From assembly GCA_963842085.1 (NCBI GenBank), contig CAWJET010000001.1:1472001-1536000 (forward strand): a DNA stretch of 64,000 bases, given 5' to 3'. Positions within the stretch are counted from its first letter, which is position 1, and the number at the start of each line of letters is the position of its first letter. Below, in pieces: positions 19,801-25,578 of this stretch. Made by a program: the position numbers and the translations under genes. The stretch comes from an uncultured delta proteobacterium (lineage in GTDB: Bacteria; Desulfobacterota; Binatia; Binatales; Binataceae). The notes under the pieces were generated by a model that worked only from the letters and a program-made list of their open reading frames with translations, ran no database searches and was not told the DNA's origin.

Positions 19801-19980
19801 TGAAAGTGTGCACCATTCTGCAATCGGTGCGTGAATGCGTTACTTTACACCACTCTGGTGCATACCTCAACTACCATCGTTCTTGATACGGTCATTCATT
19901 ACTCGCGGAATCTTCGATGGAGCCACCACCACGCAGTCATGGCCCAGCCTGCGCGGCGTCAACCATTTCTGCCGGACGCA

Positions 19981-21826
19981 TTGACTCACGATTTTTGTTA
20001 CCGGGTCGGTGGTGGTTGCCTCACGTAGACTGCTACCCAGCAGCGGAGCCGCTGCGGGGTGGTGGGGGAGATGGCGAGGCAACTGAGGATGGCAACACGC
20101 CGGGAACTGAAGAACGCAATTGGAGAACGGTATCAGGCGACAACAGAGCGGTGCGAGCGGCGGCAGATTTTGTCCGAGTTCGTACGCGTAACCGGGTATC
20201 ATCGGAAACACGCGCTGCGCGTGCTGAATCAACCGCTGGCGGTGCGAAGCCGCGGGGCGCGGGGGCGGCTGTACCACGAGGCGGTACATCAAGCACTGAT
20301 GGTCCTGTGGGAGGCCAGCGATCGCATCTGCGGGAAGCGGCTTCGGGTTCTGATCCCGGTGCTCATCGACGCTATGGAGCGTCACGGCCATCTCGCGCTC
20401 GATCCGATGGTAAGAAGCAGGCTCCTGGATGTCAGCGCCGCCACCATCGATCGGCTGCTCCAACCGCAACGCGAAGCGGCAGGACGCGCGCGGCGGCGGC
20501 GCTGGGGCGCGGGTTCGGCAATCAGGCAGAGCGTGCCGGTGCGGATCTTCGCCGATTGGGGCGACCCTCCGCCGGGTTATTTCGAGTGCGATATGGTCGA
20601 GCACTGCGGCGGAATGCAGGAAGGCGGCAACTTCGTTCATACGTTGACCCTGACCGATATTCACAGCGGCTGGACCGAATGCGCCGCCCTTACGGTGCGC
20701 GAACAGAGTCTCGTGGTGGAAGGAATCGGCGCCATCGCCCAGCGCCTTCCATTCGCGCTGCGCGGCCTCGATACCGACAACGACACCGCCTTCATGAACG
20801 AGACGCTGCGCAGGGCTATTGCGACCGCCAGCGCATCGAATGGACCCGGTCGCGCTCTTACCACAAGAACGATCAGGCTTGGGTCGAGCAGAAGAACGGC
20901 GCGGTGGTGCGCCGGCTCGCGGGATACGGGAGATTGAGCGGGCTTGCCGCGGCCGCGACGCTCCAGCGCCTGTACGAGAGCGCGCGCCTTTATGTCAATT
21001 TTTTCCAGCCGTCGTTCAAGCTGGCGAGCAAGCAACGCCACGGAGCGCAGGTGAGTAAACGCTACCAGCCGCTCACGCCGTACCAGCGGCTGCTGGCCTC
21101 CGATGCAGTCGAGGAGACGGTTAAGCAACACCTGCGCGCGCAGTTTGCTGCGCCCGACCCGGTGGCGCTCCTGGAGACCATCCGCGAGGCACAGCAAGAG
21201 TTGCTGGCGTTGAATCATGAGGACCGCACGTCCGCCGCTACGGCGCAACCGCGGTATTTCGCTGCATTCGCGACCGCGTGGCACAGCAATAACCGCGCGC
21301 CCAGCGCGCGGAGAAAGATGGCCGCCAAGCACTGGTGGAGAACCCGCGTCGATCCGTTCGCGGAAAGTTGGCCACTCGTGGAAGGCTGGCTCGCGGCGGA
21401 ACCGAATATCGCCGGCAAGGAACTTATGTTGCGGCTGACCAATCAGCTTCCAGATCTTTATCCCACCGGCGCCCAACTTCGCACCTTGCAGCGGCGAGTG
21501 AAGGCCTGGCGCGCACAGTGGGCGCGCCATCTCGTGTTTGCCTGCAGCGCCGCTGCTCGAGCGGAACACGAAGCCGGCGTAATCCCAACCGAGACGATCT
21601 CGGCTCGCTGACGGACTAGATCTGGATCCAAGAAAGAAGTCCGAGGAAATGGGAACCGAGCTAATCGCCGCGATTGACAGCGCGAGGCCGAGAGAAGCAG
21701 CGTGCCCACTGAGCGCCAGTGGCTTTTCACGCGGACGGGCGAGAAGGGGCAGCCCCTCCTCGCGCTCCACCCCAGGACGGAACAGTGACGATTATCGGGG
21801 AGTAACATTTTTGGTTGAGGCAACAC
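19981..21826 (+). mobile_element. IS with an rve-type DDE transposase (ISNCY/IS481-like); ends approximate
   Basis: End motifs GTTGCCTCACGTAGACTGCTACC (20015) and inverted GTAACATTTTTGGTTGAGGCAAC (~21802-21824); related motif at 19981. Confidence 0.65.
20071..21611 (+). pseudogene. Integrase-core transposase, frameshifted at ~20810
   Basis: GYFECDMVEHCG and DTDND in one frame; SRSYHKNDQAWVEQKN and WRTRVDPF continue in another. Confidence 0.85.
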
Positions 21827-21844
21827 GACCGGCAGATTTAATTG

Positions 21845-22087
21845 TCGTTGATCACCCAGCCCTATGAGCTGACGATGAAGCCCGTATCCGCATCCACCGG
21901 CCTCATAAGCGTAGAGCACGCTCGGGTACAACCGGCCAATCTTCCGCGCTAACTTGATTACCGCTGCGGCCTCGTTACGAATCTCGCCTAGAAACCGAAC
22001 TTCGCCGCTGCGGCCCTTTTCGGCAACTGCGATCGCGATGCTCTCTTTGTGAACGTCCAGACCGACAAACGCGTTATGATCGCCCAT
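21845..22087 (-). pseudogene. IS110 family transposase, N-terminal fragment
   Basis: FVGLDVHKESI and YEAGGCGY DEDD motifs; truncated next to the neighbouring IS end. Confidence 0.85.
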
Positions 22088-22194
22088 GGCCCGTCCCCTA
22101 TGCGTGAGGTTAGGTGCCAGCTCCATCGCCGGCGCAACCCTCGATACCGCATAGCCGGTGACGGGCCAACCCGTTCATCCGGTCATATCGTCTG
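22088..22194 (-). ncRNA. Non-coding left end of IS110 (candidate bridge-RNA region)
   Basis: Nested stems (GCCCGTC/GACGGGC, ATGCG/CGCAT, GAGGGTT/AACCTC) upstream of the transposase start. Confidence 0.45.
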
Positions 22195-22284
22195 CTGCTC
22201 CTCCGTGAAGCGGCTTCCTTTCATTGCCCGTCTCCTTTTCAGGCGACGGACTCTACCTCATTTCGGCGTAGTTTTCGGGGTGCA
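22195..22284 (-). mobile_element. IS3-family left-end remnant (IRL plus orfA start)
   Basis: AGGAG SD and MKGSRFTEEQ starting at 22224; IRL TGGCC|TGCACCCCGAAAA is rebuilt when the IS1111 is removed. Confidence 0.7.
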
Positions 22285-22334
22285 TGTATGGACCCAGCCC
22301 CGTGCGCAAGGCTGTCGCTCCGACGATCTGATAT

Positions 22335-22495
22335 CCGGTTGCAGGCATGTATCCGGCCTCTCGAATGGAACATGGTTGGTGTTCCGGGCCATGATGGATA
22401 TCCGCACGTCTTCCACTCGTCAGGCCATCGGCCTCATGGGCCTTGCACCCCAACAGGTTTGGAAAACGCCGGTCCGACCGGCTCGCCATCAGCAG
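22335..22495 (-). ncRNA. Bridge/seek RNA of the IS1111 element (boundaries approximate)
   Basis: Guides GGGGTGCA and TGGCCTG match the insertion site; CCATCATG and ATACATG match the circle junction. Confidence 0.8.
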
Positions 22496-22539
22496 ACAAC
22501 CTTCGCAACTCCTTGGCAAGTTTTTTCCCGGCGGCCCCC

Positions 22540-23561
22540 TCAGGCGGCAGCCGGGACGCGGTACTCTTCAGCGCGGGTGAGCAACGCCCACACCACTCGC
22601 GCGTTCTTATTGGCCAACGCTACCGCCGCGATGTTTGACCCGCGTCGTTCCTTGAGCTTTTCAACCCAACGGCTGCGTGGGTCGCGTTTGCGCGCGACGT
22701 GTCGCAAAGTCGAGCGCGCCCCATGGATTAGCAATGTGCGTAGATAGCGATCGCCGCGCTTGCTGATACCAAGCAGCACGGTGCGCTCGCCGCTCGAGTG
22801 CTGGCGCGGCACCAGTCCAAGCCACGCACTCAGCTCCCGCCCGCTGTGGAACTGCCGAGCATCGCCCACCGCTGCTATCATCGCCGTAGCTGTCAACGGG
22901 CCGATTCCCTCTACCGCCATTAGCCGAATCGCTCGTTCGTCCGCGCGTGCCAGCCCTGTGATACGCAGGTCATAGCGCCTGAGCCGCTCCTCGAACAGCC
23001 GCAGGCGCTCGCTCATCTCGGAAAGTATCTCACGCAAGAGATCGCTCACCCGGGCTTCGTGGTCCGCGACGATCGTCGCTAGCGCCCGGCGCAGCGCGAG
23101 TGCTCCCTGCGCAACTACGACCCCGTATTCGGCCAGCAGTCCGCGCATCTCATTCATCAGCGCCGTCCGCTCGCGGATCAGTAACGATCGCACCCGATGT
23201 AGTGCCATCATGTCCTGTTGCGCCTGGCTCTTGATCGCGACGAAGCGCATCGACGGCCGCCCCACCGCCTCGCAGATCGCTTCCGCGTCCCGCGCATCAT
23301 TCTTGTTCGACTTCACATAGGGGCGGACGAACCGCGGACTCATCAACCTGACTTCGTGCCCGAGCTTGGTCATCTCGCGCGCCCAGTAGTGCGCGCCGCC
23401 GCACGCTTCCATCCCCACCAAGCAGGGTTGAAGCCGAGCTTGAACGATAACAACTGCCGGCGCCGCAGCTCGCGCTGCACCACGGTCTTTCCCCGACTAT
23501 CGACCCCGTGCACTCGAAACACGTTCTTTGCCAAGTCGATACCCAACGTTCTAATGTTCAT
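22540..23561 (-). pseudogene. IS110/IS1111 recombinase with a 1-nt deletion at ~23440
   Basis: GIDLAKN, MEACG, KNDARDA and GLVPRQHSSG motifs split over two frames. Confidence 0.88.
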
Positions 23562-23815
23562 CTTCAGACCCTCCCTCGCTCATCGTCGTGATGGCGTCTG
23601 CCATCCTGGCCCATTTAGAGGCCGCATAGAAAAGCGAGGGCTGGGTCCATCCCATCAGGCCAAAAGCCGCGAAGCGTGCGGCGCGATCAATCCTCACAGA
23701 CCAAGCGCGGTCTTCATTGAAGCAAAGAGCCTTCTTCGAGCCGGAGTATATACTTGACGCAAATCAGGGGTTGGGTACGGCGGAACCGCGTGGAATGAAA
23801 ACTGAGACTGTCAGA

Positions 23816-24127
23816 TCAGAGATTGTACCAAGCGGTGTGAAGCGCGTTCAGAGCGTTCAGGAGCGTTTGCGGTGGAGCCGACTCTGCGGCAAGGGCATCC
23901 AGCATCGGTTGAGTCAAATTCTGTTCAATATGTTTGAGACGCGCTGCGCTGATGTGGCCCGAACTGAACTCATCAATAAGGGCTTGGAGCAACGAGATCA
24001 GAGAACCATAGAGAGCGGGACGCTGGAAAAAGTGCTGTTCAACCAGCTGCAGCAACTCGCGAAGATTGGTTTCGTAGAGTCCGCTTTTGATCAGATTTTG
24101 CGCTTTTGCCTTTATCGCCGGGTCCAT
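23816..24127 (-). CDS. Hypothetical alpha-helical protein (103 aa)
   Basis: Open frame overlapping the 3' end of the pyrE-like gene; no recognised motif. Confidence 0.55.
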   Translation of the reverse strand: MDPAIKAKAQNLIKSGLYETNLRELLQLVEQHFFQRPALYGSLISLLQALIDEFSSGHISAARLKHIEQNLTQPMLDALAAESAPPQTLLNALNALHTAWYNL

Positions 24128-24686
24128 CAAAATTTCTAAGATCGCTGAGCGTGAAAAGAGCGTGAAATCTAACGCCCATCGCTTCAATATTCTTACGACC
24201 GTTTGATTCTTCGCGATCCACCATCGCAATTACGTGATCAACCTTCAAACCAGCCTGCCGAACAGTCTCTATTGCTTGAATTGCAGAGCTGCCCGAAGTA
24301 ATCACGTCATCGACAATCAGCACGCGGTCGCCCGATTTCGTGTCTCCGGCAATCAACGATGTTATTCCATGCTTTTTGTGATCCTTCCGAACAACGAACA
24401 CTCGAATCTTTTTCCCAGTGTCTCTGTAAATCTTGTCCGAGACGGAAGTAGCGATCGGGTAGGCCCCAAGCTCCAATCCCCCGATGGCATCCATCGGCAC
24501 ATGACCGAGCTTCTCAACGATTAAGGTCGCAAGGCAATCGCGCGTTTCTGGATCGGACAGGCCCTTCTTGCAGTCAACGTAATATTTGCTATCGATCCCT
24601 GAAGCGAGGTGGTAGATCGGAGCATCGCTCTCCAAATACGACGTGCGCCTAAGGATTTCGAGCAACCTGCGACGTTCTGAAGCCAT
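24039..24686 (-). CDS. pyrE: Orotate phosphoribosyltransferase-like type I PRTase
   Basis: LASG..S.YYVD, GLELGAYP, RKDHKKHG and VLIVDDVITSGSS PRPP motif. Confidence 0.8.
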   Translation of the reverse strand: MASERRRLLEILRRTSYLESDAPIYHLASGIDSKYYVDCKKGLSDPETRDCLATLIVEKLGHVPMDAIGGLELGAYPIATSVSDKIYRDTGKKIRVFVVRKDHKKHGITSLIAGDTKSGDRVLIVDDVITSGSSAIQAIETVRQAGLKVDHVIAMVDREESNGRKNIEAMGVRFHALFTLSDLRNFDGPGDKGKSAKSDQKRTLRNQSSRVAAAG

Positions 24687-24827
24687 TGACCCCTCCGCCT
24701 CCACAGCCTTCTTCGGCAGGTTTGTCATTGTGATTGGGCGGATATTATTAGAATCGGTAATCCAAAAGCAACCAAGCACAAGCTATCAATACACAGGAGC
24801 TTGCGCTCTGTGGATAATAGTACGGCG

Positions 24828-24969
24828 TTAGTCGGATTCGGGCCAGCCCTCAGCAGGACGCTTCTTCTTCAATGATTCCTCGATTGCGTCCTTCCAATTG
24901 CCTTCGAGTTTCAGAATCTCCGGCTAGGGTCCAGGCGTCTTTTTTTCCCGGGCTCGTTTTTGCTTTCAC
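24828..24969 (-). pseudogene. Small basic ORF coupled to the IS1595 remnant (frameshift plus internal stop)
   Basis: GTG overlaps the remnant's TGA; reads ..PGP*PEILKLEGNWKDAIEESLKKKRPAEGWPESD after a shift in an A7 run. Confidence 0.45.
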
Positions 24970-25578
24970 GGGATCGGCGTCGCTAACAGTTTCTCGAACA
25001 TCAGACGCTTGCGGTCGGCCTGGACCTGATCTGTGTCGCGCAAATGGTCCGCCAATACCGCATTTGTAGACTGCCACGCTATGAGTCATCAGGTGCGAGC
25101 CGTCGAGTTTTTTCGAGGAAATGCACCTGGGGGGGAAACGGGACCGTGTTGCCCGCTGTGCGGTGGCGAGATTCAACGGGAATCCAGAATTGAGGCATCT
25201 GTAGAAATCCGGAACAGTCGATCAATCCTAACTAGGCTGTGCTGTAGGGACCCTCGGCAAGAATCGGTATCGCTCAGCTACCTCTGCCCAGGGCCTCGGT
25301 TGACATGGAGTGACGCGGAGCGATGCCAGCCAATACCGACGAAAAACGCCAATTCCGCTACTCTCATGCAAGAGGTCCCTGGTTCGGTGCGTTCGCCAAC
25401 ACAATTCCTCACGCATGGCATGAAAAGTCCTGTAGCGTTCAGCAGTCGAGCGCGTAACTGTTGAAAGCAGTGAACCCATGCTCCAGCCAAGTCCTTGCAG
25501 CTTCGTGCCGCCGCCTACATCACGCCTACATGAGTGTCGCTTTGGAACCATAGCGATGCGCTAAGTATTTGATTTTAT

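Follow-up and report, generated by a model that had tools for sequence, protein, structure and literature searches.

The subject of this report is an insertion sequence (IS) of the IS1111 family that lies within a 64,000-nucleotide (nt) stretch of DNA from an uncultured delta proteobacterium (contig CAWJET010000001.1, positions 1,472,001 to 1,536,000), hereafter the window. All coordinates are positions within the window and the element, at 22285-23657, is read on the minus strand. It is a decayed copy, and its 3′ non-coding region very probably encodes a bridge/seek RNA programmed for the ends of IS3-family elements. An RNA-guided IS1111 element directed against IS3 ends had been proposed earlier from the letters of the sequence (the original prediction), and the analysis reported here supports it on the family of the recombinase, the region of the guide RNA, the ends of the donor, the target and the TG core, with the qualification that this particular copy is defective. 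The anatomy of the element, its exact insertion site, the structure and covariation of the RNA scaffold, the covariation of guides with flanks, and repeated independent insertions of relatives into IS3 ends are all directly observed.

With the TG core at the left end counted once, the element is 1373 bp long (Table 1). Siddiquee et al. (2024, PMC11187229) define IS1111 members by features that include subterminal inverted repeats of 11-13 bp, terminal extensions of 7 bp on the left and 3 bp on the right, and a non-coding region downstream of the gene for the transposase. In the window element the subterminal inverted repeats are 13 bp long and perfect, the extensions have these same asymmetric lengths, and the non-coding DNA downstream of the gene is long, covering ~255 nt from the stop codon (22540-22542) to the element end at 22285, with a further ~96 nt of non-coding DNA upstream of the gene. 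The left junction reads TGGCC (23662-23658), TG (23657-23656), ATGG (23655-23652) and the right junction ATACA (22289-22285), TG (22284-22283), then CACCCCGAAAAC. TG alone is common to the two junctions and there is no further target duplication, as is typical of IS1111 insertions.

The transposase gene belongs to the DEDD/IS110 group, ISfinder placing IS1111 within IS110, and has the DEDD (RuvC-like) domain at the N-terminus and the PF02371 domain at the C-terminus that are expected of the family. The longer of its two reading frames matches Pfam PF01548 (DEDD_Tnp_IS110, 5e-12) and PF02371 (Transposase_20, 3e-24), NCBIfam NF033542 ('IS110 family RNA-guided transposase') is matched with 314 bits against a cut-off of 140, and the S/T-G motif is present in the open reading frame (ORF) as GLVPRQHSSG. 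The protein is at most 59% identical to the best 25 plasmid-borne relatives listed. The gene is frameshifted, and the window element is a dead copy, a fossil: it is unable to move alone because its transposase is frameshifted and the genome has no second copy. One full copy only is found in its own genome, together with two shorter left-end relics that are 89% identical to it (C1:1628643-1628729, which is flanked by TGGCC-TG, and C1:3193185-3193239). Nothing closer than ~70% nucleotide identity over most of the element length was found in the genomes of 60 relatives, and the right-junction pattern was absent from the 400 other genomes of the phylum that were searched.

Whether the frameshift might be an assembly error, or a programmed frameshift in a copy that is still active, has to be considered, as the genome was assembled from metagenomic (soil) runs and an intact IS3-family copy in the same genome likewise has a shifted orfB frame. 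However, contigs of four soil-metagenome runs from two studies cover the stretch 23381-23660 and carry the same sequence with no gap or indel, from which we take the frameshift to be real; this comparison used contigs only, and two of the four runs may be the source of the assembly, whilst two come from other samples. Eight of the ten full-length relatives encode a single uninterrupted ORF of 340-348 amino acids (aa), and the family therefore uses no frameshift. The window copy is, in addition, 3 bp shorter than full-length relatives with an intact ORF. An active copy is thus very improbable.

The evidence for a guide RNA begins with four short segments in the non-coding region downstream of the gene: GGGGTGCA (22451-22444), TGGCCTG (22427-22421), CCATCATG (22397-22390) and ATACATG (22352-22346). 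All four lie on the minus strand in transcript order, exactly where the original prediction had put them, but some of its details needed revision. The 5′ target guide is 10 nt long, including the complement of the core, and the 3′ target guide is 8 nt long with seven matching positions. As for the donor segments, which had been matched to the predicted circle junction, ATACATG and CCATCATG do match the ends of the element, but the 'CA' of the CA-TG-ATGG match is not kept in relatives and the last G of CCATCATG lies in a predicted GGCC stem.

The first target guide matches its flank at 9/10 positions in the window and at 10/10 in one relative (L042), and its columns are unpaired in the consensus structure described below. 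The second matches at 7/8 positions here and at 4-8 of the eight in relatives. In all relatives, the 10 nt that follow a conserved (A/C)CTG are the reverse complement of the core and right flank, and the 8 nt that follow the GGCC hairpin repeat the left flank and core. The complement of the top strand stands 5′ of the match to the bottom strand, an order that is also reported for IS1111 seekRNAs in the available text of PMC11187229. Two target segments that pair with opposite strands of the target, overlap at the core and follow the IS1111 order are what is expected of a bridge/seek RNA.

To examine the fold, a comparative structure was used because the fold of the single sequence is uninformative. 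The alignment comprised the non-coding regions of 16 family members, seven with IS3-end guides and nine belonging to other guide lineages from this genome and related genomes. In the RNAalifold consensus of these 16 sequences all four segments are unpaired and lie in two internal loops, as the original prediction requires, and not in stems. The target part consists of a basal stem and an internal loop in which the target segments flank a GGCC hairpin; the donor part consists of a second short stem and a second internal loop in which the donor segments flank another GGCC stem. Compensatory changes are seen in five of the seven pairs of the stem at the base of the target loop in one alignment (A1) and in six of the seven in another (A3).

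The structure as a whole has 23 pairs. Across the 16-sequence alignment 99.7% of cells form standard pairs and six of the pairs are compensatory, values reached by 0/500 shuffles; when the partners are slid by 1-3 columns, pairing is 27.5-44.2%. With 32 sequences aligned to a covariance model that was built from the first alignment, an alignment biased towards that model, 98.7% of cells pair and ten pairs are compensatory. The guides are thus exposed in the internal loops of a conserved, covarying fold, another property expected of a bridge/seek RNA.

The guides also vary in step with what they would recognise. Taking one representative for each of eight guide lineages, we compared guides and flanks at 14 non-core positions: each guide agrees with its own flank at 10-13 of the 14, whereas the 56 cross pairs agree at 4.0 on average, with a maximum of 11. 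The highest cross scores (8-11) come from lineages with related targets. The segment matches exceed chance. On the donor side the guides track the ends of the elements, with ATACA accompanied by ATACATG in 7/7 of the sequences with IS3-end guides and ATATA by ATATA(T/C)G or ATATATC in 9/9 of the others, such that 16/16 agree at that base. L021 provides a compensatory case, with left end ATGA and guide TCAT where the others have ATGG and CCAT. That the guides covary with both target and donor across relatives is again as expected of a bridge/seek RNA, and the guide/target covariation called for by the original prediction is therefore present.

An alternative would be that no guide RNA is involved, the segments being DNA sites recognised by a protein or remnants of earlier recombination with the target. 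No transcript has been observed and the fold energy of the single sequence is unremarkable, both of which would suit this explanation. Against it, the loops that hold the segments are closed by helices showing compensatory changes, which argues for selection on the RNA fold; they change with the target across eight lineages whilst the scaffold stays constant; and the same arrangement is known from experiment to be a seekRNA in other IS1111 members (PMC11187229, available text). We consider DNA sites or recombination leftovers very improbable.

What, then, is the target? Removal of the element restores TGGCC-TG-CACCCC. The genome contains two intact IS3-family copies (C1:1572375 and C2:1571955) whose left end is exactly this restored site, TGGCCTGCACCCCGAAAAC. 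When both strands of the 4.93 Mb genome are searched, the 13-mer TGGCCTGCACCCC occurs at those two left ends only. The IS1111 element therefore lies inside an IS3-family left inverted repeat, at 5 bp from the IS3 tip (7 bp counting the core). Beyond the right junction an SD-like GGAG (SD, Shine-Dalgarno) is followed by the ATG at 22224-22222 with which MKGSRFTEEQ begins; that removal of the element would yield an IS3-type left end with an SD and these codons had been foreseen, and the two intact copies confirm it. The IS3 copy struck by the IS1111 element is now a 90-bp stump, homology stopping at 22195, where an IS110-like N-terminal fragment starts. Contigs of other IS3 copies diverge from the window at that same position, and the loose contig ends at 22284 come from intact IS3 copies elsewhere and do not represent this locus with its site empty.

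One of the intact IS3-family copies (C2:1570580-1571955) is 1376 bp long, with ends TGGCCTGCACCCC and TGGCCTGCTCCCC; its orfA matches Pfam HTH_Tnp_1 (PF01527, 9e-27) and an integrase-type frame lies downstream. Together with an rve-type orfB core in the flank of L042 and terminal repeats starting with TG, the orfA match identifies the target as a member of the IS3 family. Its putative subgroup is IS407. Besides the usual orfA/orfB shift, the copy at C2:1570580-1571955 needs a second frame change within orfB and may be defective.

Other copies tell the same story. Public contigs were scanned with the guide region alone, with the flanks lying outside the pattern. The scan of genome contigs gave three matches, two of them true relatives, and that of metagenome contigs gave 20 relatives, 22 in all; the third genome match (L040) was judged to be a chance match, with no scaffold around it and no match to the covariance model. 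All readable left flanks end in TGGCC-TG (13/13 with the window included, 12/12 without it) and all readable right flanks begin with TG-C(A/T/C)CCCC (16/16 and 15/15, respectively), so that site and orientation are the same at every readable junction. With its variable base, the target can be written TGGCCTGC(A/T/C)CCCC. There are ten distinct left flanks and ten distinct right-flank sequences, and the insertions lie in at least ten contexts.

When intact IS3 proteins were used as queries, IS3 orfA/orfB were found in the right flank of nine of the 15 other loci with a readable right flank, in sense in four cases (left-end insertions) and antisense in five (right-end insertions), indicating that both IS3 ends are used. 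The remaining six right flanks show a repeat-like start only. The ORF in the flank of L042 matches NCBIfam NF033516 (IS3 family transposase) with 233 bits, the cut-off being 160, and also rve and rve_3. Relatives found by their guides alone thus sit in IS3-type ends, as the original prediction had anticipated. The reverse order of events, in which an IS3-family element inserted beside a resident IS1111 element and the similarity between non-coding region and flank is incidental, is extremely improbable: in two relatives (L041 and L060) the right subterminal repeat of the IS1111 element is joined directly to an IS3-type end, so that contacts in the opposite direction may occur, but at all 13 left and 16 right readable junctions the IS3 repeat is split, with its first 5 bp on the left and the remainder on the right, and removal of the element restores the exact end of intact IS3 copies.

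A number of observations weigh against an IS1111 element guided by RNA to IS3 ends. Folded as a single sequence, 22285-22545 is no more stable than its shuffles (z = -0.13), and its minimum free energy structure shows the loops only in part. There is no Rfam 15 match in 21000-25000 at E up to 1, though Rfam may hold no model for an IS1111 bridge RNA. Among the public sequencing runs listed as holding the stretch there is no RNA run, and a scan of 22150-23800 found no sigma-70-like promoter in the integrated element (0 promoters). In the same interval a terminator scan found one terminator-like site, which lies inside the gene; this is fewer than in shuffles.

The junctions raise points of their own. 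In 7/16 readable right flanks one internal position does not match the guide (A versus T or C), and strict pairing at all bases is therefore not needed. Contigs from metagenomes can be chimeras joined across repeats, and two loci (L050 and L058) share the same left flank with different right flanks, so single junctions should not be over-read. Scans conditioned on the guide would miss copies with the same guide elsewhere only if their flanks were unreadable. Six of the 22 relatives have no readable canonical right junction. Among the relatives that lack one, L062 is cut by the contig end, L043, L051 and L056 are truncated or diverged, L041 and L060 have an IS3 end at this place, and L044 has an inverted left-end junction. 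The two intact target sites in the same genome are unoccupied. Finally, with the recombinase gene broken and single-copy, nothing indicates activity in this genome.

How might an intact element of this kind work? The 10-nt guide, complementary to the top strand of the core and right half (TGCACCCCAA), and the 8-nt guide, identical to the top strand of the left half and core (TGGCC-TG), between them define the terminal 13-15 bp of the inverted repeats in one IS3-family group, and in the donor loop two shorter segments match the abutted ends of the element (ATACA-TG-ATGG). By analogy with published IS1111/IS110 work, the element would excise as a circle whose junction forms the donor site and probably a promoter, from which the gene and then the guide region would be transcribed. 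Once it has bound the RNA, the DEDD recombinase would exchange strands between circle and IS3 end at the shared TG core, giving insertion in one orientation, 5 bp (7 bp with the core) inside the IS3 repeat, with the IS3 tip cut off. RNA production, the circle and catalysis are all steps that we infer from that work. By likeness to known elements that target transposon ends, insertion should disable the IS3 end concerned. The abutted ends of the window element read TTGCGC, 17 nt, CATGAT, with 7/12 promoter matches, and 7-9/12 are found in 19/19 elements; a promoter at the junction is suggested by these sequences, and only suggested.

Table 1. Features of the IS1111-family element and its target in the window (all on the minus strand)
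Feature	Position	Strand	Details
IS1111-family insertion sequence	22285..23657	-	One full copy in the genome; full-length relatives 1376-1380 bp, 78-94% identical
Left terminal extension TGATGGG, 7 bp including core TG	23651..23657	-	Length as described for IS1111 members (PMC11187229)
Left subterminal inverted repeat ATGGACCCAGCCC	23638..23650	-	Perfect 13-bp complement of 22288-22300
DEDD/IS110-family transposase pseudogene	22540..23561	-	Two frames, 23561-23370 and 23421-22540; one-base frameshift near 23426-23430
Bridge/seek RNA core (predicted) with target- and donor-binding loops	22335..22490	-	Covariance model R1, 162.9 bits, E 6e-40
Stem at base of target loop	22407..22468	-	22462-22468 paired with 22407-22413
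Target guide 1, TTGGGGTGCA, 10 nt	22444..22453	-	Complement of core and right target half (TGCACCCCAA); 5′ side of target loop
Apical hairpin of target loop, GGCC-CATGA-GGCC	22430..22442	-	Four pairs kept in 16/16 sequences
Target guide 2, ATGGCCTG, 8 nt	22421..22428	-	Identical to left target half and core (TGGCC-TG); 3′ side of target loop
Donor guide 1, CCATCATG	22390..22397	-	Complement of core and left-end start (TG-ATGG)
Donor guide 2, GGATACATG	22346..22354	-	Identical to right-end tip and core (ATACA-TG)
Right subterminal inverted repeat GGGCTGGGTCCAT, then 3-bp extension ACA (22287-22285)	22288..22300	-	Conserved in family alignment
Outer 5 bp (TGGCC) of interrupted IS3-family left inverted repeat	23658..23662	-	Junctions; match to intact copies
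Rest of IS3-family left end: second core TG, inverted repeat, SD, first 10 orfA codons (MKGSRFTEEQ)	22195..22284	-	98-99% identity over 90 bp to intact copies; cut off at 22195

Several further observations concern individual relatives. L059, which is 94% identical to the window copy, has the 5′ target guide GGGGAGCA where the window copy has GGGGTGCA, a natural difference of one base at the site that varies among IS3 repeats (A/T/C) and that does not match the flank in 7/16 readable right junctions. L041 and L060 (genome and metagenome contigs) lack ATACA: immediately after the right subterminal repeat (...GGGCTGGGTCC) each has a complete IS3-type end instead. The two ends (TGGCCTTCCCCC... 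and TGGCGTGCCCCCC...) are of two different IS3 types at the same position, and a search over 2.6 kb found no opposite end of the IS3-like element in either. In L044, from a metagenome contig, the right end GGGCTGGGTCCATA-CCATCAGGCCA is an inverted left junction in place of the normal right junction. A relic of ~111 bp in the genome of the window, G000 (L006, C1:1628624-1628734), consists of TGGCC-TG and 87 nt of IS1111 left end, 89% identical to the window copy, and ends with the inverted junction ATCCCATCAGGCCA. It is the single instance in the genome and may be what remains of an IS3 copy that was hit at both ends and then internally deleted.

More distant relatives carry other guides. Three related IS1111 copies in the genome of the window, with ~69% nucleotide identity (L002-L004; G000 C1:550454-551866, C1:3241033-3242446 and C2:1664630-1666049) have the same scaffold, with guides that match a REP-like palindrome, TGTGTGTGGCGAATT...AATTCGCCACACACA, and each lies at a palindrome edge. 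In another related IS1111 element (L028, in G026), the right junction lies where an apparent tRNA gene, encoded on the other strand, has its 3′ end (TGGCTGCTGGAGAGGGGTGGATTCGAACC), and the guide matches the tRNA-end-like sequence at 9/10 positions.

The neighbourhood of the window element is itself a stack of decayed mobile elements, extending over 19.9-23.7 kb. The IS3 stump is cut at orfA codon 10, after GAGGAGCAG, by another fragment (21800-22195, minus strand) comprising ~107 nt of non-coding DNA and then ~95 aa resembling the N-terminus of IS110-family proteins (MGDHNAFVGLDVHKESIAIAV...). Its 222-aa ORF has no Pfam match and the genome holds no other copy or paralogue of it; the fragment may represent a second DEDD-type insertion into the same IS3 copy. 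In turn, the IS110-like fragment appears to be truncated by overlapping ORFs at 19917-21611 (plus strand), whose match to the rve integrase core is weak and below the Pfam cut-off (E 1.4e-4).

How does the element compare with known systems? It resembles the seekRNA-encoding IS1111 elements ISEc11, ISKpn4/ISPst6 and ISPa11 (PMC11187229) in its DEDD transposase with a GL-P----SG motif (WLGLVPRQHSSG here), its subterminal repeats, 7-bp and 3-bp extensions and downstream non-coding region, and its two short target matches with the top-strand complement 5′. It differs from them in its target, which is an IS3-family end rather than a linear site, attC site or REP sequence, and the window copy is, in contrast to these elements, frameshifted. 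ISEc21, an IS110-family element, targets a conserved region inside certain IS3-family members and so is likewise RNA-guided with IS3-family elements as its landing site, but its non-coding region lies upstream and its guide order is reversed (PMC11187229). The bridge RNA of IS621 (Durrant et al. 2024, PMC11208160) shares the target and donor internal loops, the left and right guides and the common 2-nt core; the IS621 RNA, however, is located in the left end with CT as its core, that of the window element in the right end with TG. Durrant et al. report that 93% of IS1111 members have a predicted bridge RNA in their right end.

Targeting of the repeats of other mobile elements also has precedents. 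IS4321 and IS5075 are reported to be IS1111 members found at one position and in one orientation in the terminal repeats of Tn21-family transposons, much as the window element is in its IS3 repeat, the difference being that their target is a Tn3-family and not an IS3-family repeat. The terminal repeat of Tn3-family transposons is 38 bp long. IS1383, of the IS110/IS1111 type, integrates into the inverted repeats of IS1384, judging by the title of Muller, Lauf and Herrmann (2001), which is cited among the references on IS1111 subterminal repeats in PMC11208160; here too the target is the inverted repeat of another IS, although a different one, and the concept of a guide RNA was not known in 2001. 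A search of the literature found no description of an IS1111 member in the terminal repeats of IS3-family elements, but ISfinder and the supplementary target tables of PMC11187229 and PMC11208160 lay outside that search and may contain such a case. IS1111 elements with seek/bridge RNAs, the targeting of IS repeats, of transposon repeats and of IS3 genes are all already in print, and with the IS1383/IS1384 precedent in particular the novelty is lower than the original prediction assigned. The window element clearly illustrates, in nature, a mechanism that is already known; it does not represent a new kind of system and would not surprise a specialist.

The finding leaves the understanding of the mechanism unchanged. 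What it offers is a natural case of predicted bridge/seek RNA targeting that can be read in one genome, with recombinase, scaffold, guide pairs, core and donor ends, one occupied site and two empty ones, and with no fewer than ten other insertion contexts against which it can be compared. Among the multicopy sites in mobile elements that serve IS1111 elements as targets, IS3-family terminal repeats are an addition. The case also supplies natural data on mismatch tolerance at one guide position, whilst the intact relatives, with a recombinase of 340-348 aa and the same guides, are material for a recombination assay. A wider reading, which we hold to be rather unlikely, is that this is a widespread soil IS1111 lineage specialised on the most conserved 13-15 bp of IS3 repeats, acting as an RNA-guided antagonist by which IS3 copies are immobilised and driven to decay. 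If so, a single guide set that tolerates the polymorphic fourth base (A, T or C) would suffice for several IS3 species at either end, each insertion would remove the tip of an IS3 end, and the odd junctions of L041, L060, L044 and C1:1628624-1628734 may have been left by IS3 copies that were hit twice and by a conflict in which each of the two element types attacks the other.

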